Below are positions 8,160 through 17,986 of a stretch of DNA of 64,000 nt, one piece after another (positions within the stretch are counted from its first letter, which is position 1; each line of letters opens with the position of its first letter). Origin of the DNA: an uncultured Gammaproteobacteria bacterium. Its GTDB lineage: Bacteria; Pseudomonadota; Gammaproteobacteria; Xanthomonadales; SZUA-38. The notes under the pieces were generated by a model. That model did no database searches, had not been told where the DNA came from, and saw only the letters and a program-made list of their open reading frames with translations. The stretch is taken from contig CAYGPO010000006.1 of the NCBI GenBank assembly GCA_964351665.1, positions 4,623 to 68,622 of the forward strand, written 5' to 3'. The position numbers were made by a program, and so were the translations under genes.

Positions 8160-8358
8160 TTTGACTGATATTCCTTCTTCAATGGCCTATCCTTTGGCCT
8201 GAAACACTGCTGCATCCATTGACGCTACTGTGGGCTTGTTGTCCCAGGTCTGTTTCAGCCTGTAGGGATAGAGTATACGGTCGGCCAGGGCGGCTTATTG
8301 TCAACGAATGTGTGATTGGAGTGAGTGTGTTAACCGATCCAAGGGGTCAAAATTAGCC

Positions 8359-9144
8359 ATGAAAACAGGTTTGTTCAGATTTTTGCCACGGGTCTTTCAA
8401 ACCGCCGCTGTGTTACTTATGGCGGCCACGGCGGGCGGATGTTTTCGACAGCCGGTGCCGGAACTCGATGGCCTGCCGCAACGCCCTGAGTACGATGAAA
8501 CGGCAACGCCTCAAGCTGGCGCTGAAGGCCGCCGTTTTGAAGTGGGGCAGGGGCGGCTGCTGGTCAGGGTTTATCGCAGCGGCTCGATGGCGAGGTTGGG
8601 TCATAACCACACCATAGAGGCGCCTATACACGGCGTGTTTTCACTGCTGGGAAGTGCCGTGACCGCTGAACTTTTTGTAAGACCCGCCGAGCTGGTGGTG
8701 GACCGTCAGGAAACCCGTACATCCCAGGGCGAAGACTTCGCTAAGCCGGTAAAAGCCGCAGACGTTGAGGGCACCCGGGGCAATTTATTGTCGGAAAATG
8801 TTCTCAACCCTCTGCAGCACCCCTTTATTCGAGCCAGCATCGATAGCGCTGTTACTGGGTCTGGATTCACTGCGGTAACCTTTGAACTGGCCGGCAAACA
8901 GTTCACCCGGGAGCTGGAAATCCAAACTCTGGAAGATGACCCCTGTAATCCGCGTTACGCCGGCGAGCTGACCTTGAGTCATGGAGACTTTGGTCTCCAG
9001 CCTTTTTCTATCCTGGGCGGCGCCATCGCAGTAAAAGATGAGTTTGAGGTGGTCTTTGAGTTGACCGGTGTCAGGCAGGATATGGCGTCAGCGGGCTGTC
9101 AGGCCTTGTCTCTGGATTCCAGTAGATCCCAGCGATTACCGTAA
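8359..9144 (+). CDS. YceI-like domain lipoprotein
   Basis: Start chosen at MKTGLF (RBS aagggg at 8341). Lipobox LLMAATAGGC. The block LLVRVYRSGSMARLGHNHTIE...LSENVLNPLQHPFI...ELTLSHGDFGL resembles YceI-like polyisoprenoid-binding domain proteins. Confidence 0.6.
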   Translation: MKTGLFRFLPRVFQTAAVLLMAATAGGCFRQPVPELDGLPQRPEYDETATPQAGAEGRRFEVGQGRLLVRVYRSGSMARLGHNHTIEAPIHGVFSLLGSAVTAELFVRPAELVVDRQETRTSQGEDFAKPVKAADVEGTRGNLLSENVLNPLQHPFIRASIDSAVTGSGFTAVTFELAGKQFTRELEIQTLEDDPCNPRYAGELTLSHGDFGLQPFSILGGAIAVKDEFEVVFELTGVRQDMASAGCQALSLDSSRSQRLP

Positions 9145-9601: not shown

Positions 9602-9954
9602 ATGACCAAAGCCAAAGCAATCGTTATTAACCTGTTTGCGGTACTTATCAGCTTTAGCGCTGTCAGCACGGCCACGACAAGGGGCGCTCAGCTGATCGCC
9701 GAGGGCCCACATCCCGATGCTCCGGCAGAGGTGAAACAATATGGCACTTTGCAGGGTGATTGGAGCTGCGACTCATCGTCCCGTCAAGCCGACGGCAGCT
9801 GGTAGACTATCCCGCGTATTTCGCGAAAATCACGTTCTTCAATATGACCCCATCTCACTTCGACTGGAGCTATGAGGCGACGGCAGTCGGCACCGATATT
9901 GGCTGGGCGCCGTTCAGCCGAATGTCCTGCACCAGGCTGGAGGCCGTTCATTAG
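9602..9954 (+). pseudogene. decayed remnant of a small secreted DUF1579-like protein (internal deletion plus frame change)
   Basis: ORF 9602..9805 gives a signal peptide plus HPDAPAEVKQYGTLQGDWSCDSSSRQADGSW, then a stop. A different frame (9760..9954) carries the family-like C-terminus ITFFNMTPSHFDWSYEATAVGTDIGWAPFSRMSCTR. Only about 25 nt separate the two pieces, so the central part of the domain is missing. Confidence 0.45.
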
Positions 9955-10146
9955 CCCACAGGCGGACCGTCGAAAGACCAGCAGATCCTGGCGTAAGGCT
10001 CGTCCGCAGCCCAGGGCGCGAATCTGCTTATGCAGCGCTCGCCTCGCCTGAGCCCCTCTCTTACCTTATGATCGGTGCTCTATATCGCTCTTGTGATGCT
10101 ATTGGGCGACGTCCGGTGGTCAGCGCGAATCGAATAAGGGGCCGAG

Positions 10147-12183
10147 TTGAGCAAAAGATTTTCCATTCCTATTCTGGGCTGGGTGGCCATAGGCCTTGGG
10201 ATTGTTGGCGCATTGCCCTTTGCCCTTTCCTGGTATCAAATCCACAGCTCCCGGGAAGCCATGGTGGATCAGACCCAGTTGACCCATCTGTTGGTGGCCC
10301 GGGCCAATGCTGACAGCATCGCGGACTATTTGAATCTGCTCGATGGTTTGTTGGCCACCGCCGGCGACCATCCAGACGTATACCTTGAGCCAGCCTCTGA
10401 CTCAGCGCTGGAAATTCTCAAACAAACCCTGGCTGCCCGGGAAGAGATCAAATCTCTGGGGTTGTACTCTCGGTCCCCTGCTACCGATAGCGCCGGAAAC
10501 CAGAGCGCCAACGACGGAGCTGGTAGCAGCAACCCATTCATCACTCAGGAGATTTTTTTGTTGGCCAAGGCGGGCTATGAGCCGGTTGCCCAATCGCTGC
10601 TTGAGCAGCTCATTGAAACCCAAGGGCCGATTAGCGTTGATCGCGGATTAGACAATTATTTGGTGCTGGGCCGGGAGACCGCCCGGCCCGGCGTGTACCT
10701 GATGGCGCTGCTGACCAATCGCCAGATCAATGAACGCTCAGCGCCGCCGGAATTGGGTGATGCCGCGCGGCTGGCGGTGATAAACGGTGGCGGCGAGTTC
10801 GTGGCGGGAGACCAGGACGCTCTGGTGCTGCTGCCCCAGGATTTACTGATTCAGACGCGAGAGGCGCCGGTGCGATCTGACGCCCATCGTTTCTCCCTGG
10901 ATGGAGGGTTTGGCGTTGCTGCCTTTGCCCGCATCACCGGCGCTGACTGGTCGGTGGTTTCGGTCCAACCTGCGCGCCAGGCGGAGCGGGCGACAACCGC
11001 CATGCAGCGCACCGCTTGGCAGGCCTTTGCCGTACTGGCTGCGGTGATGGCGATGCTGATGCTGGGCGCCCATCGGCTGGTGGTCAAACCGGTGCGCCAG
11101 ATGATTGCGGCCCAGCGCAGGCTGCTGGGCAGCGGCGCCAGCGGCGGCAGCGAAATAGCCCAGCTGAAGGCGTCCTTTGAACAGCTGGAACAAGCCATGG
11201 TGGAGCGGGACAGCCTTAGTGAGGTTTTTCTCGATCGCTATCAGATTACCCGCCGCGTAGGCTCCGGCGCCATGGGCACGGTGTATCTGGGCTGGGATCC
11301 GAAACTGCAGCGTCAGGTTGCCCTGAAAACCATCAAACTGGACGCCCAGCTGCCGGCCAAAGAGCGCGAAGAGTTGACCGCCGCGCTGCTGCGCGAAGGC
11401 ATCACCAGTGCCGGTCTCACCCACCCCAACATCGTGACGGTATACGACGTCATGGGCAATGACGACTTCGCCTTCATTGCCATGGAGTTTGTTGACGGAG
11501 AGGGGCTGGATCAACGAATTAGGCGCGAAGTCCGGCTGTCACCGAAGGTGGTGGCTGACGCTGCTGACGCCATTTTGCGCGGCCTGCGAGCCGCCCACAA
11601 TCAGGGTGTCATCCATCGGGACATCAAGCCGGCCAATATTCTGGTGGCCAGCGATGGTTCGATAAAGGTATCGGACTTTGGCATTGCCGGACTGCTTAGT
11701 CGCAGCGGTGAAGGTGAACGGGTTATCATGGGCACGCCGGGCTATTTGGCGCCGGAAACCTATCTGACGGCAGAGTTTGGCGTGGCCACTGACCTGTTTG
11801 CGGTGGGGGTTGTGATGGTGGAGTGTCTGACCGGAACGATGGTTTTTGCCGGTCGCAATACGGCCCAGATTATTACCCGGACCTCGTCCAAGGATGTCAG
11901 TCTGCCGCCGGAAATTGCGGCCCATGTGCCCCGGCCCATGCAGGAGCTGATCACCAGTCTGCTGGAGAAAAAGCCAGCCAAACGACCTGCCAGCGCTGAT
12001 GATGCGCTGCAGCTGCTGGCGCCCATCATCACCCTGTTGGCCAATACACCGGACGACGCCGCTGAGTTGGACAGTGCAATTTTACAGGAGCCTTCCCATG
12101 AACAAGGCAATGAGCGTGGCAATCAACAGCCGACCATTAAAATGGACGGCGCTGTTGCTGATACTCGTCGTATTCAGCGCTGA
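10147..12183 (+). CDS. membrane Hanks-type Ser/Thr protein kinase with N-terminal extracytoplasmic sensor region
   Basis: TTG start with aagggg RBS. TM1 is ILGWVAIGLGIVGALPFAL, followed by a roughly 260-aa extracytoplasmic region and TM2 AWQAFAVLAAVMAMLMLGA. Kinase motifs GSGAMGTV, VALKTI, HRDIKPANIL, DFGIA and GTPGYLAPE are all intact. Confidence 0.85.
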   Translation: MSKRFSIPILGWVAIGLGIVGALPFALSWYQIHSSREAMVDQTQLTHLLVARANADSIADYLNLLDGLLATAGDHPDVYLEPASDSALEILKQTLAAREEIKSLGLYSRSPATDSAGNQSANDGAGSSNPFITQEIFLLAKAGYEPVAQSLLEQLIETQGPISVDRGLDNYLVLGRETARPGVYLMALLTNRQINERSAPPELGDAARLAVINGGGEFVAGDQDALVLLPQDLLIQTREAPVRSDAHRFSLDGGFGVAAFARITGADWSVVSVQPARQAERATTAMQRTAWQAFAVLAAVMAMLMLGAHRLVVKPVRQMIAAQRRLLGSGASGGSEIAQLKASFEQLEQAMVERDSLSEVFLDRYQITRRVGSGAMGTVYLGWDPKLQRQVALKTIKLDAQLPAKEREELTAALLREGITSAGLTHPNIVTVYDVMGNDDFAFIAMEFVDGEGLDQRIRREVRLSPKVVADAADAILRGLRAAHNQGVIHRDIKPANILVASDGSIKVSDFGIAGLLSRSGEGERVIMGTPGYLAPETYLTAEFGVATDLFAVGVVMVECLTGTMVFAGRNTAQIITRTSSKDVSLPPEIAAHVPRPMQELITSLLEKKPAKRPASADDALQLLAPIITLLANTPDDAAELDSAILQEPSHEQGNERGNQQPTIKMDGAVADTRRIQR

Positions 12184-13267
12184 AGCCCAGTCTTACAGCC
12201 TGCTGGAAAAGCTAGGTCTGGCCGACGGTGACTACTGGGTTGCCAGTAACGGGGTGGCCTTGCCGCTGGCCGAATTTGCCGTGCCAGACAGTCAAATCAA
12301 TGAAGTTCTGTTGCTGCGCTTGGCCGAAGGTGGGCTGCAGCCGGTGGGTTGGTATGAGGTCTCCGAAACCGATTTGGCCAATGCGGGCACAAGCCCTGGC
12401 CAGCTCACCCTGGACAGCGAGCCGCCGCAAGCGGAACTTAAGCTCAATGGCCAATGGATTGAGACCGCTGCTGGTTCAACGCTGGCGGCAGCCGACGCAA
12501 AGGTGATGCTGAGCTTCCAGGACCCGGCGGGATTGCGGGACTGGGTGCTTACCGATTCTCACCGGGTTTCTTCGACGGGCAATCAATGGGCCGAGGGTGC
12601 TCATCGGTTGCTTGTTCGGGCTGCTGACGGCCTTGGCAATCAGGGAACCGCTGGACGACTGGAGTTTGAAGTTGATGCCAGCGGACCTGATATGAGCTGG
12701 CAAATCCTGTCCGACAGCCAGGCCCAGGGGCGCGCTGGACCCATTTATGCCCCGCCGGTTTCGGTGCGTCTGAGCGCTTCAGATCCCGCCGGATTGTCCC
12801 TGCTGGAGGTCGATAGTGGCGACGGCTGGCAGGGGGTGAGCGATCAGGCAGTGATCAGCCTTGCGGCCAGCGGACTGCGACTACGCGGCGTTGACGGGCT
12901 GGGGAACACCGCCACCGCTGAGGCGAGCTGGCAATACGATCTGGAGGCGCCACAAATCGTTATCACCGTAGAAGGTCAGGACGTGGCCCAGGATAATGAG
13001 ATAGTGTTGCCGGTGGGCGGGGTTATTGAGATCAACGTGATGGACGACGGCGTGGGTGTGGACAGCGCCACCTACCAATACAATCGACGGCCGCCAAAGG
13101 CCCTGCCCGAGACCATTCGATTTGTTGATAGAGGCTGGTATCAAATGGAGATTCGGGCCCAGGACAAACTCGGTAACCTACGGGTTAGGCATATCGATAT
13201 ACGCACCTCGCCCAGGGCCTATCGGCCGCGACGGGCAGGTGCACCGCCGGTGGGAGTGCAGTGGTGA
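12098..13267 (+). CDS. secreted protein with three Ig-like modules
   Basis: Start at ATG 12098 (RBS caggag 12085-12090). Signal peptide LLLILVVFSAEAQS. Repeated module ends: LLVRAADGLGNQGTAGRLEFEVD, LRLRGVDGLGNTATAEASWQYD and YQMEIRAQDKLGNLRVRHIDI. Overlaps the kinase 3' end by 86 nt. Confidence 0.6.
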   Translation: MNKAMSVAINSRPLKWTALLLILVVFSAEAQSYSLLEKLGLADGDYWVASNGVALPLAEFAVPDSQINEVLLLRLAEGGLQPVGWYEVSETDLANAGTSPGQLTLDSEPPQAELKLNGQWIETAAGSTLAAADAKVMLSFQDPAGLRDWVLTDSHRVSSTGNQWAEGAHRLLVRAADGLGNQGTAGRLEFEVDASGPDMSWQILSDSQAQGRAGPIYAPPVSVRLSASDPAGLSLLEVDSGDGWQGVSDQAVISLAASGLRLRGVDGLGNTATAEASWQYDLEAPQIVITVEGQDVAQDNEIVLPVGGVIEINVMDDGVGVDSATYQYNRRPPKALPETIRFVDRGWYQMEIRAQDKLGNLRVRHIDIRTSPRAYRPRRAGAPPVGVQW

Positions 13268-14622
13268 AGCGCCTGATTGCTGCGCTGTTAGTGTCGGTTA
13301 GCGCCATGGTCCAGTCCCAGGAGAGCGTTGACGACACCCTGGGCATTCACATCGTGAAGCCTGGAGAAAGCCTTTGGACCATCACTCGGCAGTATCTGGG
13401 GGAAGATTTTCTGTGGAAAGAAAACTGGCGTCTCAACCCCGACATCAAAGACCCGAACCGGCTGCGCATCGGCCAACAGCTGACGGTGATTAAAGAACGT
13501 AAGATCACTGCTGACAGCGCGCTGGTCAAAAGCGTTGCCAATGAAGTGGACAAAAATATTCAGCGCAGCGCCTGGGAAACGGCTCAGCCTGGCGATGAGC
13601 TGGCAGAGCGCGACGGCGTTCGGACCCGAGCCAGTTCCTCCGCTGAGCTGCAGTTCACCGACAACTCTCTGCTTCGAGTGGGGGAGTTTTCACAAATTTT
13701 CCTGCAACAAAAAACCACCACCTTAAGAGGCGTAGACAAAGGCCGGATTGAAGTACGACGGGGGGCCGCTGAATTGGTCTTTGCGCCCATGAGTCGGCGC
13801 AAGACCGAGATTGAGCTGGTGGCAGGATCAGCCCTTAGTCGGCCTAAACCTGACGCCTCGGGCCGAGGCCAGATCGCTGCAGGAGCCGATGAGACAGATG
13901 GAACCTCCAGGGTAATGGTTTACGAGGGTAGTTCTGTGGTTGAAGCGGCGGGGGCTCAGGTCTCGCTGCGCCGTGGCACCGGTTCGAAAGTGCCGGCCAA
14001 CGGGCCTCCATCGCCGCCGGAGACCCTGCTAAATTCGCCCCGGGGTTTGCTGCCATTAACCGATTCGGTGTGGAAGGTAGCCAATATGCAGGTGTCCTGG
14101 CAGCCGGTAGCTGGGGCCCATCACTACCGGGTTGAGGTCTGTCGCGATCCAGACTGCGGTTCGCTGCTGCTGCGCAGCGAAGCTCTCAATACGACCCGCT
14201 GGCAGCCAACCCTGAGCGACACCGGCGACTTCTACTGGCGGGTGAGAGGGGTTAGCGCCAGCGGCCTTGACGGCTATGCCAGCGCGCCGGTCCGATTGAC
14301 CCTGGAAACCCTGCGGATTGATAGCCGGCCGCCCAGTGTTGCGGTTTATCCCGCCGGCCCTCACCTGTGGCGGAATCAACAGCTGGTGATCAAACCGGAT
14401 ACGCCGCTGATTTTGACCGCCTTTGATGCAGGCATTGGGCTGGATTTTCTGGAATACCGCTGGGGTGATGGGCCGTGGCAGCGGGTCCCAGACAACACCG
14501 CCATATTGCCAACTCAAAACCAAACAATAGGCCAAAAGGCGAGTCTGCTTGGGCTGCGCGCCGCGGATTTGTTAGGCCAGGTCAGCGACATCGTGGTGAT
14601 CGAATTGGCTGCGGGTCAGTAG
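13261..14622 (+). CDS. secreted LysM + FecR-domain protein with C-terminal FN3/Ig-like modules
   Basis: GTG start with a 7-nt overlap with the previous gene. Signal peptide. LysM: HIVKPGESLWTITRQYLGEDFLW...NRLRIGQQLTV. FecR-like: GDELAERDGVRTRASSSAELQFTDNSLLRVGEFSQIFL. FN3-like: WQPVAGAHHYRVEV...YWRVRGVSASG. Confidence 0.7.
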   Translation: MVKRLIAALLVSVSAMVQSQESVDDTLGIHIVKPGESLWTITRQYLGEDFLWKENWRLNPDIKDPNRLRIGQQLTVIKERKITADSALVKSVANEVDKNIQRSAWETAQPGDELAERDGVRTRASSSAELQFTDNSLLRVGEFSQIFLQQKTTTLRGVDKGRIEVRRGAAELVFAPMSRRKTEIELVAGSALSRPKPDASGRGQIAAGADETDGTSRVMVYEGSSVVEAAGAQVSLRRGTGSKVPANGPPSPPETLLNSPRGLLPLTDSVWKVANMQVSWQPVAGAHHYRVEVCRDPDCGSLLLRSEALNTTRWQPTLSDTGDFYWRVRGVSASGLDGYASAPVRLTLETLRIDSRPPSVAVYPAGPHLWRNQQLVIKPDTPLILTAFDAGIGLDFLEYRWGDGPWQRVPDNTAILPTQNQTIGQKASLLGLRAADLLGQVSDIVVIELAAGQ

Positions 14623-14992: not shown

Positions 14993-16672
14993 ATGAAAAA
15001 GCTTCTTGGTCTGCTGTTACTGGCGCCTTTTGCCGCGCTGGCTCAGGGCGAAGGGATTGATGCACGGATCAACAGTCTGGTGCAGCCGATCACCGACGCG
15101 GTTTTCTCTGTAATTTTTTACCCCATCAGCATGTTTGGATCGGCGGTTCCCTTTATTGTGATATGGCTGGTTGTGGGCGCCAGCTTCTTCACCGTGTATT
15201 TTGGCTTTATCAATATCCGTGGATTCCTGCAGGGGTTTCGCTTAATCCGGGGGGATTTTTCAGACCCCAATTCCCCTGGCGAAGTCTCTCACTTCCAGGC
15301 CCTGGCCACGGCGGTGTCCGGCACTGTAGGTTTGGGCAATATCGCTGGAGTCGCCGTGGCGGTGACCCTGGGTGGTCCTGGCGCCACCTTTTGGATGATC
15401 CTGGCGGGTTTGCTGGGCATGTCCACTAAATTTTGTGAGTGCACCCTGGGGGTTAAGTACCGAAGGGTAAATACTGACGGCAGTATTTCCGGTGGGCCCA
15501 TGCATTATCTGTCCAGGGGGCTGGCCGAACGCTCGCCGGCGCTGGCGCCCCTGGGCAAGATCCTGGCCGTCATGTTTGCACTGCTCTGCATTGGTGGTTC
15601 GTTTGGCGGCGGCAACATGTTCCAGGCCAACCAGGCCCACGCCATGGTGGTGTCGGTGACCGGCGGCAACGAAAGCTATCTGGCTGACAAAGGGTGGTTG
15701 TTCGGACTGGTCATGGCCGCCATGGTGGCGGTGGTCATCATCGGTGGAATCAAGTCCATCGCCAGGGTGACGGGCAAGCTGGTGCCCTTTATGGCAGCGG
15801 TTTATATCCTCGCTGCTCTGGTTATCCTGGTGATGAACGCGGGCCAGATTCCGGCGGCTTTCGGCGCCATTGTGACCGGCGCTTTTGCCCCAACCGCGGT
15901 GGTTGGCGGTGCCATAGGAGTGCTGATACAGGGCTTCCGGCGAGCCGCGTTTTCCAACGAGGCGGGCACCGGATCTGCTGCCATTGCTCACTCGGCGGTA
16001 AAAACCAACGAACCTGTTACCGAGGGCCTGGTCGCCCTTTGGGAACCGTTTATTGACACCGTGGTGATCTGCACCATGACGGCCCTGGTGCTGGTGATCT
16101 CCGGCAACTGGCGGGTAGACGCCACCGTTGCGGTGGATACTGCGGCTCTTTACGCCAGCGCCAACGACAGCGCCATGGTGGTTGAGCAGGTTGACCGAGG
16201 GACCGAGCTACGTTTGCTCAGCAGTGCTGAGGGCTGGCATGAAGTATGGAAGGAAGACAGCGACAACCTGTGGGTGCAGGAATCTAATCTGGAGCTGATC
16301 CAGGGTGTGGCAAAAACCAACCGCGCCTTTGCTGACACCATTAGCTGGTTCCCCTACGTGCTGGCGCTGGCGGCGGTGCTGTTTGCCTTCTCCACCATGT
16401 TGGCGTGGTCCTACTACGGGATGAAATGCTGGACTTACTTGCTTGGCGAAAGCGCCGGTAAGGAGGTCACCTATAAACTGATCTTCTGCGTATTTGTGGT
16501 GATCGGTGCTTCGATGAACTTAAGTGCCGTGACCGACTTCTCAGACGCGATGATTTTGGGCATGGCATTTCCCAACATCATCGGCCTGTACCTGCTCGGT
16601 GGGGTGGTGAAACGGGAACTCAAGAGCTATATGGCCCGGATTCGCAGCGGCGAAATTCAGTCATTCAAGTAG
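14993..16672 (+). CDS. alanine/glycine:cation symporter (AGCS) family transporter with inserted SH3-like module
   Basis: ATG 14993 is preferred over TTG 14987 (aaggga RBS 9 nt upstream). Motifs [51 protein letters not shown]. There is an extra roughly 55-aa segment at residues ~386-440. Confidence 0.9.
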
Positions 16673-16714
16673 TTTCGGCATTAGCGGCTAAGGCCGGCTC
16701 GATGGGGCGTTAGC

Positions 16715-17986
16715 ATGATAGGAACTATCGCATCCGGTTTGATGGGGCTGGCAGGCCTGATGTTAATCGCCCTGGCTTTCTCCAGCCATCGCAAGCAGGT
16801 GGACTGGCGGACGGTATTGACCGGGGTATGCCTGCAGATCCTGTTTGGCGCCTTCGTTATTCTGACCCCCTGGGGCGGTAAGTTATTCGACGTTCTGGCA
16901 AATTTCTTTGTTACTTTAATCGGGTTTTTCAGGCCCGGGGCGACGTTTATCTTTGGCCCTCTGTCGGCAGAGAACAGCAACTTCGGCTATATATTCGCCT
17001 TTCAGGTGCTGCCCACCATTATCTTTTTCGCATCGCTGATGGCGGTGCTTTATCACCTGGGCGTGATGCAGAAAATTGTTGGTGCCGTGGCCTTTGTGAT
17101 GCGTCGATTCATGCGCATCAGCGGCGCTGAATCCCTGGCGGTGGCGGCCAACGTGTTTGTGGGACAGACCGAGGCGCCGCTGGTGGTCAGACCCTACATT
17201 GCCCAGATGACCCGCTCAGAACTGTTCACCATGATGGTCGCGGGTATGGCGACCATCGCCGGTGCTGTGCTGGCAGCCTACATTGGCCTGCTGGGTGGCG
17301 ACAGCCCAGAGCAAAAACTGTTTTTCGCCAAACACCTGCTGTCCGCATCCATCATGGCCGCCCCGGCAACCGTCGTAATTGCCAAGTTACTGATTCCGGA
17401 GATCGGCCAGTCTCGAACCCTGGGTCAGGTGGATATGACGGTGGAAAAAACCGCCTTCAACGCCATCGAAGCCGCTGCCAACGGCGCCGGCGATGGCTGG
17501 CGCCTGGCAATGAATGTAGGCGCCATGCTGCTGGCCTTTGTCGCGTTGATCGCGCTGATTAACTGGCCCCTTGAGTGGCTGGGTGAGGTAACTGGCATCA
17601 GCGTCTGGCTGGGCAAGCCGTTGAATCTGGCATTGATCCTGGGCTATCTGCTGGCGCCGCTGGCCTGGCTGATTGGGGTGCCCAGTGCCGATGTGGTCAC
17701 GGTGGGAGGCCTGATTGGTCAAAAGTTGGTGACCAACGAGTTCATTGCCTATGTCGCGTTTAACGAGGTGCAGGGGGAAATGACCGACAAGGCTCGGTTG
17801 ATTACCACCTATGTATTGTGTGGATTCGCTAACTTTTCCTCCATTGCCATCCAGATTGGCGGGATCGGACCGCTGGCACCTGAGCGGCGCAGTGAAATCG
17901 CTTCCCTGGGGCTACGAGCGGTGCTGGCCGGCACCCTGGTGTCGATGATGACGGCCACCATTGCCGGCGTGCTGCACTCGTTCTGA
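16715..17986 (+). CDS. NupC/CNT family concentrative nucleoside transporter
   Basis: 423 aa. Motifs FAFQVLPTIIFFASLMAVLYHLGVMQ, VFVGQTEAPL and CGFANFSSIAIQIGG. Confidence 0.9.
   Translation: MIGTIASGLMGLAGLMLIALAFSSHRKQVDWRTVLTGVCLQILFGAFVILTPWGGKLFDVLANFFVTLIGFFRPGATFIFGPLSAENSNFGYIFAFQVLPTIIFFASLMAVLYHLGVMQKIVGAVAFVMRRFMRISGAESLAVAANVFVGQTEAPLVVRPYIAQMTRSELFTMMVAGMATIAGAVLAAYIGLLGGDSPEQKLFFAKHLLSASIMAAPATVVIAKLLIPEIGQSRTLGQVDMTVEKTAFNAIEAAANGAGDGWRLAMNVGAMLLAFVALIALINWPLEWLGEVTGISVWLGKPLNLALILGYLLAPLAWLIGVPSADVVTVGGLIGQKLVTNEFIAYVAFNEVQGEMTDKARLITTYVLCGFANFSSIAIQIGGIGPLAPERRSEIASLGLRAVLAGTLVSMMTATIAGVLHSF

Follow-up and report, generated by a model that had tools for sequence, protein, structure and literature searches.

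A Hanks-type kinase with a dCache-type sensor and an adjoining LysM-FecR protein gene form a conserved pair, a candidate envelope signalling module

The subject of this study is a three-gene locus at positions 10147-14622 of a window of 64,000 nucleotides, the whole stretch of DNA analysed here, from an uncultured gammaproteobacterium (contig CAYGPO010000006.1). Three overlapping genes on the plus strand encode an intact Hanks-type Ser/Thr kinase, a protein of immunoglobulin (Ig)-like repeats (open reading frame 2, ORF2) and a protein made up of LysM, FecR, FN3-like and Ig-like domains (ORF3). We found that the kinase gene and the LysM-FecR gene belong together. As judged from gene order, their linkage is far beyond chance, real and old, and spans at least three phyla, because 54 of 59 loci keep the kinase beside the LysM-FecR gene. 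A functional linkage of the two genes is strongly supported by this comparison. Our preferred reading, held with moderate confidence, is that the locus encodes a conserved envelope signalling module, in which a peptidoglycan-anchored co-sensor modulates a kinase that carries a double-Cache (dCache) sensor and a HAMP-like linker.

For the comparison, one genome per GTDB species was scanned with a 15-sequence subset alignment (A5) as the query, since the 49-sequence alignment (A3) was too diverse. The scan gave 59 species-level loci with a LysM-FecR homologue, and the 54 counted above are those in which tblastn placed an orthologous kinase no more than 7 kb from the LysM-FecR gene. Four of the five misses were cut by contig ends, and only one locus (L049) truly lacked the kinase. 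In 28 loci, an ORF2 homologue separated the kinase gene from the FecR gene, and in 21 the FecR gene directly followed the kinase, the arrangement seen in the 6.5-Mb genome of locus L006. The order was reversed in two loci and convergent in three; the FecR gene came first and the kinase second in L007, and the kinase of L008 was followed by a LysM-FecR-CarboxypepD_reg fusion. The gammaproteobacterial loci came from Lysobacterales/Xanthomonadales, Marinicella, Alcanivoracaceae and one metagenome-assembled genome (MAG) of Oceanospirillales, and the triad was present in the cultured Marinicella sediminis F2. Acidobacteriota contributed loci from Thermoanaerobaculia, Vicinamibacteria and Holophagales, and further loci were found in Candidatus Multivoradales and one Deltaproteobacteria MAG. 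The genes flanking the pair differed among lineages: in Xanthomonadales MAGs the triad again lay in an ahcY/metF context, loci L004 and L005 carried it in unrelated contexts, and the surroundings of the pair in L006-L008 were different as well.

The initial annotation had joined all three genes into one possible sensing complex, and had named a lack of synteny in relatives as a refuting result. The kinase-LysM/FecR pair withstood this check across the phyla; synteny was looser for the Ig gene, which intervened in only 28 of the 59 loci. The comparison therefore describes a core of kinase and LysM/FecR protein, with the Ig protein as a frequent but not universal member. In some lineages, an ORF2-like module has been joined to the C-terminal end of the LysM-FecR protein (P0017, E 2e-11), which is classic fusion evidence, at the level of gene structure, that the Ig and FecR proteins act together. 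All-against-all clustering of the open reading frames in 65 loci recovered the kinase, the FecR/Ig proteins, shadow frames in antisense and nothing else; no other conserved neighbour (substrate, phosphatase or regulator) emerged from these 65 loci. Likewise, the gene lists of the window and of its relatives showed no FHA, phosphatase or response-regulator gene adjoining the triad, in agreement with the initial annotation.

The kinase gene (10147..12183, plus strand) encodes 678 amino acids, and the same 678-aa gene call was present on locus L001. As the initial annotation had claimed, the product is an intact membrane-bound kinase: all catalytic motifs are present, and two hydrophobic helices, at aa 4-29 and 289-314, flank a region of about 260 aa. 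Transmembrane (TM) helix 1 (10156..10233) was assigned by hydropathy, forms part of a modelled helix at residues 9-73 and contains P24, conserved in 99% of sequences. TM helix 2 (11011..11088) was assigned in the same way and lies inside a modelled helix at residues 277-327. The orthologous kinases were collinear over their whole length, the sensor included.

An AlphaFold2 model of kinase aa 1-361, built on an 89-sequence alignment, had a mean predicted local distance difference test score (pLDDT) of 91.3 and a predicted template modelling score (pTM) of 0.80. In it, a long stalk helix leads into two alpha/beta modules, after which come a helix running through TM helix 2, a Gly-rich connector and a second helix. 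When the model was compared with the PDB by Foldseek, the matches were dCache ligand-binding domains throughout (E 1e-10 to 1e-6, probability 1.0), among them Mlp24 (6iot, E 6e-9), PctC, Tlp3, TlpQ, mmHK1S-Z3 and DctB. The window kinase itself scored below the cut-off of the dCache_1 family PF02743 (E 0.19, 11.7 bits against 45), and precomputed PF02743 matches existed in many kinase orthologues at 31-45% identity. We assigned the region at aa ~30-288 (10234..11010) as a periplasmic dCache_1-type sensor on the combined basis of the model, Foldseek and the orthologues. The initial annotation had considered this ectodomain unassignable, and had stated that a match to a characterised ligand-binding family would remove its novelty; with the dCache_1 assignment and a HAMP-like linker, part of that novelty is therefore gone by its own measure. 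With only the sensor region as the query, a word-index homology search gave no match over its threshold. Exhaustive phmmer, run with the same query on 1.84 billion proteins, recovered only 167 representatives, and almost every one of them was 620-700 aa long and had the same kinase architecture.

After TM helix 2, a helix-loop-helix segment at aa 315-360 (11089..11226) resembles a HAMP linker. In the model, helices 277-327 and 336-360 are joined by the Gly-rich connector, and the second helix stops about four residues short of the kinase domain. Conservation in this segment was high (P315, 100%; E336, 99%; Q323 and L340, at least 98%), and its GSEIAQL motif resembles the DEIGxL motif of HAMP domains. 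Precomputed PF00672 (HAMP) matches existed in two orthologues (P0069 and P0116), and weak NCBIfam alignments to the HAMP regions of SiaA and of methyl-accepting chemotaxis proteins covered the same stretch. By alignment and model, the input half of the protein combines a dCache_1-type sensor with a HAMP-like linker behind it. The whole kinase can accordingly be described, on the same predicted architecture, as a chemoreceptor- or histidine-kinase-style input module placed on a Ser/Thr kinase, with the HAMP-like linker leading straight into the Hanks domain.

The ectodomain was not uniformly conserved. The membrane-distal dCache module was its least conserved part and carried a lineage-specific low-complexity insertion at aa ~110-130, whereas the proximal module, the stalk and the HAMP-like region were conserved. 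Ligands of dCache domains usually bind in the membrane-distal module. A poorly conserved distal module would fit an input that is mediated by a protein.

These observations bear on the chief competitor of the co-sensor reading, namely that the kinase is an autonomous small-molecule sensor like Mlp24, PctA or DctB, and that the two secreted products belong to the envelope or to adhesion and are co-expressed with it but have no role in the input, for example structural proteins on the output side whose production is coupled to the kinase. In favour of this reading, the fold is a canonical dCache, and surface proteins and adhesins often contain Ig-like, FN3 and LysM modules. However, co-expression alone hardly accounts for an adjacency that is near-obligate across phyla in which the flanks change, and the module in which a ligand would bind is the least conserved one. 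The partner also tracks the sensor. Two CHASE2 kinases whose catalytic domains are the most similar have FHA and metallophosphatase genes beside them and no FecR neighbour. Therefore, the partner appears to follow the dCache sensor and not the kinase clade, and we rejected the idea that the FecR protein accompanies a clade of catalytic domains. Moreover, homologous LysM-FecR proteins also accompany CHASE2 sensors (see below), which indicates a role at the sensor. Strict synteny and the poorly conserved distal pocket thus disfavour an autonomous sensor, and we consider it unlikely, although it is the main rival.

The catalytic domain occupies aa 365-621 (11239..12009) and matched Pkinase (PF00069) with an E value of 1.7e-55 and 188.7 bits against a cut-off of 31.7. 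The motifs GSGAMG (372), VALK (391), HRD (490), DFG (510) and APE (535) were all present, and they were invariant in seven orthologues. This domain also gave strong PADLOC matches to the PD-T4-6 and mad6 models, together with an NCBIfam MAD6 match, and we considered whether the locus might serve in defence against phages, as a kinase system like PD-T4-6 or MADS. The matches spanned only the generic catalytic domain (aa ~340-650), the two partner proteins had no PADLOC match, the surroundings are housekeeping genes (ahcY, metF, transporters) that are kept in related MAGs, and the protein is built as a periplasmic sensor. Given that the similarity to the PADLOC and MADS models is that of any kinase domain, we rejected the defence reading, to which we attach almost no probability.

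The two downstream genes overlap the kinase gene and each other, as the initial annotation had reported for two signal-peptide proteins; their starts could be refined. The ORF2 frame is open from 11999 to 13267, and its likely true start is the ATG at 12098, which is preceded at 7 nt by AGGAG. With this start, the gene (12098..13267, plus strand, 389 aa) overlaps the kinase gene by 86 nt; besides the ATG and its Shine-Dalgarno sequence, the call was backed by Big_13 and NF047446 matches and by the alignment of orthologues. ORF3 (13264..14622, plus strand, 452 aa) probably starts at GTG 13264, which shares GTGA with the stop of ORF2, in agreement with a 452-aa database protein (P0001) that it matched at 100%. 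An exact-sequence search with a 453-aa version of ORF3 gave no match, P0001 beginning one codon later. The overlaps suggest co-translation of the three genes.

ORF2 begins with a predicted signal peptide, MNKAMSVAINSRPLKWTALLLILVVFSAEA, which ends in AEA directly before QS. A region of unknown fold follows, and then three Ig-like modules of the Big_13 or OmpL47 type at 12413-12673, 12674-12937 and 12938-13207, which were delimited by internal repeat alignment. The modules are about 90 aa each and mutually alignable; they begin with D-x-x-x-P and end with R-A/G-x-D-x-L-G-N. The D-x-x-x-P and D-x-LGN motifs were invariant in the orthologues, so the three modules with D-x-LGN ends that had been described earlier stood up to both repeat and orthologue alignment. 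Profile scores were close to threshold: Big_13 reached 23.9 bits, under its cut-off of 27, and the OmpL47-type domain NF047446 reached 40.1 bits, borderline at its cut-off of 40. Four modules align mutually, the three of ORF2 and the C-terminal one of ORF3.

ORF3 had been described as combining LysM, FecR, FN3-like and Ig-like domains, and this composition was recovered, the first two domains above their Pfam cut-offs and the other two by alignment. The LysM domain (13348..13488) matched PF01476 with an E value of 6.7e-7 and 29.6 bits against 20.9. In family-profile searches it was closest to the LysM of TsaP (6ve2_O, E 6e-14; also 3jc8). TsaP is a peptidoglycan-binding periplasmic protein of the type IV pilus secretin. 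A TsaP-like LysM fits an ORF3 product that would be tethered to the wall. The FecR beta-sandwich, whose Pfam-matched core lies at 13618..13842, matched PF04773 (E 3.9e-6, 27.7 bits against 24); its motif ERDGVRT...SSAEL.F.D is conserved, and PF04773 was precomputed in many ORF3 homologues. An FN3-like domain with a Cys pair (14044..14310) was delimited by alignment invariants, Foldseek and a profile match to the Fn3-like protein 3mpc (E 0.007). It carries the motifs VEVCRDxxCG, which contains the invariant Cys pair, and WRV..VSASGLDG, and its invariant residues are W280, Y289, C294, C299, W326 and G335-L336. The C-terminal Ig-like module (14314..14610), identified by module alignment, is of the ORF2 type, ends in RAADLLGQ and is present in only part of the family. 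An AlphaFold2 model of ORF3 based on 49 homologues had a pLDDT of 90.3. Foldseek with the whole chain gave only generic tandem FN3/Ig matches, which added nothing to the FecR assignment.

The N-terminus of ORF3 resembles a cleavable signal peptide, and the protein has no TM segment. A Pfam profile search detected neither a FecR_C/STN-like domain nor a cytoplasmic anti-sigma domain in ORF3. Given the PF04773 match above the curated cut-off, one could imagine a relay like FecIRA, in which an outer-membrane TonB-dependent transducer signals to the FecR domain and the kinase, in place of an extracytoplasmic function (ECF) sigma factor, receives the signal from that domain. Yet no TonB-dependent receptor or ECF sigma gene was conserved in the 65 neighbourhoods, and none was called in L001-L008, save an unrelated outer-membrane protein gene in L004. 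In addition, ORF3 has no FecR_C/STN-like domain and is predicted to be secreted, not anchored in the membrane. As the sigma factor, the transducer, the anti-sigma domain and the TM anchor are all missing, we rejected this relay as highly improbable.

We propose the following mechanism for the co-sensor reading. The LysM domain would anchor ORF3 to peptidoglycan. The FecR/FN3/Ig part of ORF3, extended by the Ig-repeat protein ORF2, would contact the kinase ectodomain, probably at the conserved proximal dCache module or at the stalk. The input, either an alteration of the wall or envelope or a ligand that binds to the partner, would be passed on through the dCache stalk and the HAMP-like bundle; candidate stimuli are wall integrity, muropeptides, exogenous N-acetylglucosamine (GlcNAc) glycans and envelope spacing. 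The geometry of the kinase-domain dimer would then be altered, and with it autophosphorylation and the phosphorylation of cytoplasmic targets. The kinase substrates are presumably encoded elsewhere and not near the locus. ORF3 would in this way act as a co-sensor, as LuxP does for LuxQ, and would be the Ser/Thr-kinase counterpart of the CHASE2-associated LysM-FecR proteins.

Several points weigh against this proposal. Domains of the dCache type usually bind small molecules directly, and the kinase may therefore not need a protein partner. About half of the family lacks the Ig gene, and the Ig protein can therefore not be essential to the core mechanism. Binding of the ORF3 LysM domain to peptidoglycan is predicted from family membership only. 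Finally, a Pfam search of the window kinase gave no HAMP match, and the linker is termed HAMP-like on the strength of the orthologues, the conserved residues and the model.

The same synteny is equally compatible with an inhibitory partner. The LysM/FecR protein might be a periplasmic "anti-kinase" that holds the kinase off until envelope damage titrates or degrades it, as in CpxP-CpxA or FecR-sigma pairs. The FecR family is known from regulators of this kind: FecR, FoxR and PupR switch on signal-dependent release or proteolysis. The present data do not separate activation from inhibition. However, ORF3 has neither the cytoplasmic anti-sigma domain nor the TM segment of true FecR proteins, and no protease gene was conserved nearby in the 65 loci. 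We regard an inhibitory role as distinctly unlikely.

The principle of pairing a LysM-FecR periplasmic protein with a two-TM sensor is already known, although its mechanism is uncharacterised. In Burkholderia, the "BiofilmReg" operon joins genes for a response regulator, for a LysM+FecR protein (COG4254, PA4035-type) and for a CHASE2 histidine kinase with a DUF4136 gene, and operons of this type affect biofilm formation in that genus (PMC5192318). FecR-domain proteins also adjoin CHASE2 adenylate cyclases in Campylobacterota (PMC9239204). When ORF3 was compared by tblastn with Cupriavidus and Eleftheria replicons, we found matches of 27% identity over aa 4-348 (E 7e-11), and these lay between a response-regulator gene and a gene for a CHASE2-PAS-HisKA-HATPase protein. 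By this alignment, which spans the LysM domain, the FecR domain and the next beta domain, ORF3 is a distant homologue of the COG4254 LysM-FecR partners of CHASE2 histidine kinases. The two systems also share the arrangement of a secreted LysM+FecR protein encoded beside, and overlapping, the gene of a sensor that is extracytoplasmic and has two TM helices.

Several features set the systems apart. The sensor here is dCache followed by a HAMP-like linker and that of BiofilmReg is CHASE2; a search of the window kinase for CHASE2 (PF05226) gave no match. The output here is a Hanks kinase with no adjacent response regulator, in contrast to HisKA/HATPase and a response regulator there. Our locus has no DUF4136 gene and has an extra Ig-repeat protein. 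The taxa differ as well, marine and sediment Gammaproteobacteria plus Acidobacteriota here and Burkholderiales for BiofilmReg. What differs is the sensor of dCache and HAMP-like type, the Hanks kinase output and the extra Ig-repeat component, and a literature search found no paper describing a dCache-Hanks-kinase version of the LysM/FecR pairing. The idea of the initial annotation that a periplasmic scaffold feeds the kinase fared accordingly: the gene linkage speaks for it, but a LysM-FecR protein beside a two-TM sensor had already been described (PMC5192318).

Taking the CHASE2 sensors (histidine kinases and cyclases) and the dCache-HAMP sensors (the Hanks kinase family) together, we tentatively raise a broader possibility, which we think doubtful. 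LysM-FecR-FN3 proteins might be a general class of peptidoglycan-anchored periplasmic co-receptors that serve unrelated two-TM sensors and report the state of the wall or envelope. If so, they would be a diderm, split-protein equivalent of both wall sensing by PASTA kinases and the LysM co-receptor/kinase pairs of plants.

The comparison with PASTA kinases (PknB, Stk1, PrkC), which the initial annotation had drawn, is plausible as an analogy. Both have a Hanks catalytic domain and a proposed link to peptidoglycan. However, the window kinase has no PASTA repeats and has an inverted topology, with an N-terminal sensor, two TM helices and a HAMP-like linker, and peptidoglycan binding would sit on a separate protein. 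The PASTA-kinase model NF033483 (Stk1/PknB) aligned to aa 360-641 with 243.9 bits against a cut-off of 450, and the alignment was confined to model positions 4-279, that is, to the kinase domain. In Xanthomonas PknS, the kinase is N-terminal and the periplasmic TPR region C-terminal, and we rejected PknS as an example of the same architecture since its topology is opposite (PMC13147305).

Other known systems resemble single parts of the module. The dCache_1 receptors (Mlp24, PctA/B/C, Tlp3, DctB) have the same fold and the same TM-dCache-TM order, and the HAMP-type linker that comes next corresponds to the HAMP-like one here, but here the output is a Hanks kinase and the distal pocket is not conserved. 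FecR, PupR and FoxR anti-sigma factors share the PF04773 periplasmic beta domain with ORF3, which differs in having no anti-sigma domain, TM anchor or FecR_C/STN domain, and in having no ECF sigma or TonB-dependent transducer gene nearby. LuxP is a periplasmic binding protein that signals through the tandem-PAS, dCache-like ectodomain of LuxQ. This pair may serve as a conceptual precedent for a periplasmic partner that drives a double-PAS/Cache ectodomain; in our locus a LysM/FecR/FN3 protein stands in place of a solute-binding protein and a Ser/Thr kinase provides the output, and no homology is claimed. In plants, LysM co-receptors and LysM receptor kinases perceive GlcNAc-containing glycans. 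The combination of CERK1 with CEBiP or LYM1/LYM3 offers a functional analogy only, a kinase-less LysM protein acting with a transmembrane Ser/Thr kinase; the lineage is unrelated, and the kinase ectodomain here would be dCache and not LysM.

The triad is surrounded in the window by ahcY, metF, a glyoxalase-family gene, a Na/Ala symporter gene, nupC and an lplT-type gene. Scans for promoters and terminators found sites no more numerous than in shuffled sequence. The glyoxalase-family gene and the kinase gene are 527 nt apart. In the space between them, at 9602-9960 on the plus strand, lies an ORF of 67 codons with a signal-peptide-like start, MTKAKAIVINLFAVLISFSAVS; after its stop, a second frame runs on for about 50 codons. 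Neither fragment had a Pfam match, and together they may be the frameshifted remnant of a small secreted protein. Further upstream, at 8308-9144 (plus strand), an ORF of 278 aa with a hydrophobic N-terminus belongs to no Pfam family. Conservation at this upstream position is confined to the nearest Lysobacterales relatives (7 loci), and the ORF is not part of the kinase module. Long antisense ORFs run through the kinase gene (10843-11514 and 11539-11925, minus strand) and through ORF3 (14056-14535, minus strand). They cluster across most loci because the sense genes are conserved; such "shadow" ORFs are artefacts of GC-rich coding sequence, not genes.

A few further loci deserve mention. MAGs of Zixibacteria and of the FCB group encode CHASE2 Ser/Thr kinases (L068, 4560-8589; L069, 4564-8472) that are preceded, in the same order in both, by FHA-domain and metallophosphatase genes, and this set looks like a separate conserved kinase module. 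The FecR protein of L008 (3974-6031), beside the orthologous kinase, carries a C-terminal addition resembling CarboxypepD_reg/NOMO1. On a Skermanella plasmid (L072, 4398-6764), the gene of a 788-aa FecR protein precedes that of a large PKD-domain protein, and the annotation shows no kinase close by. The metagenomic contig of L005 carries a second Ser/Thr kinase, with an AAA_16 domain, at 16381-17401, 7 kb downstream of the triad.

Peptidoglycan monitoring in diderm bacteria is poorly understood, and very few Hanks kinases of Gram-negative bacteria have a known input. The module described here is a defined and phylogenetically robust pair with an optional third component, and it has a cultured host in Marinicella sediminis F2. 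The pair ties the uncharacterised LysM-FecR proteins of COG4254 to a second class of sensor and a second output chemistry, which suggests a reusable co-sensor principle. A natural HAMP-like transmitter joined directly to a Hanks domain would also be useful for learning how four-helix-bundle signalling controls a eukaryotic-like kinase. Built of ordinary parts, the module offers a testable entry to peptidoglycan-linked sensing by the Hanks kinases of diderm bacteria.

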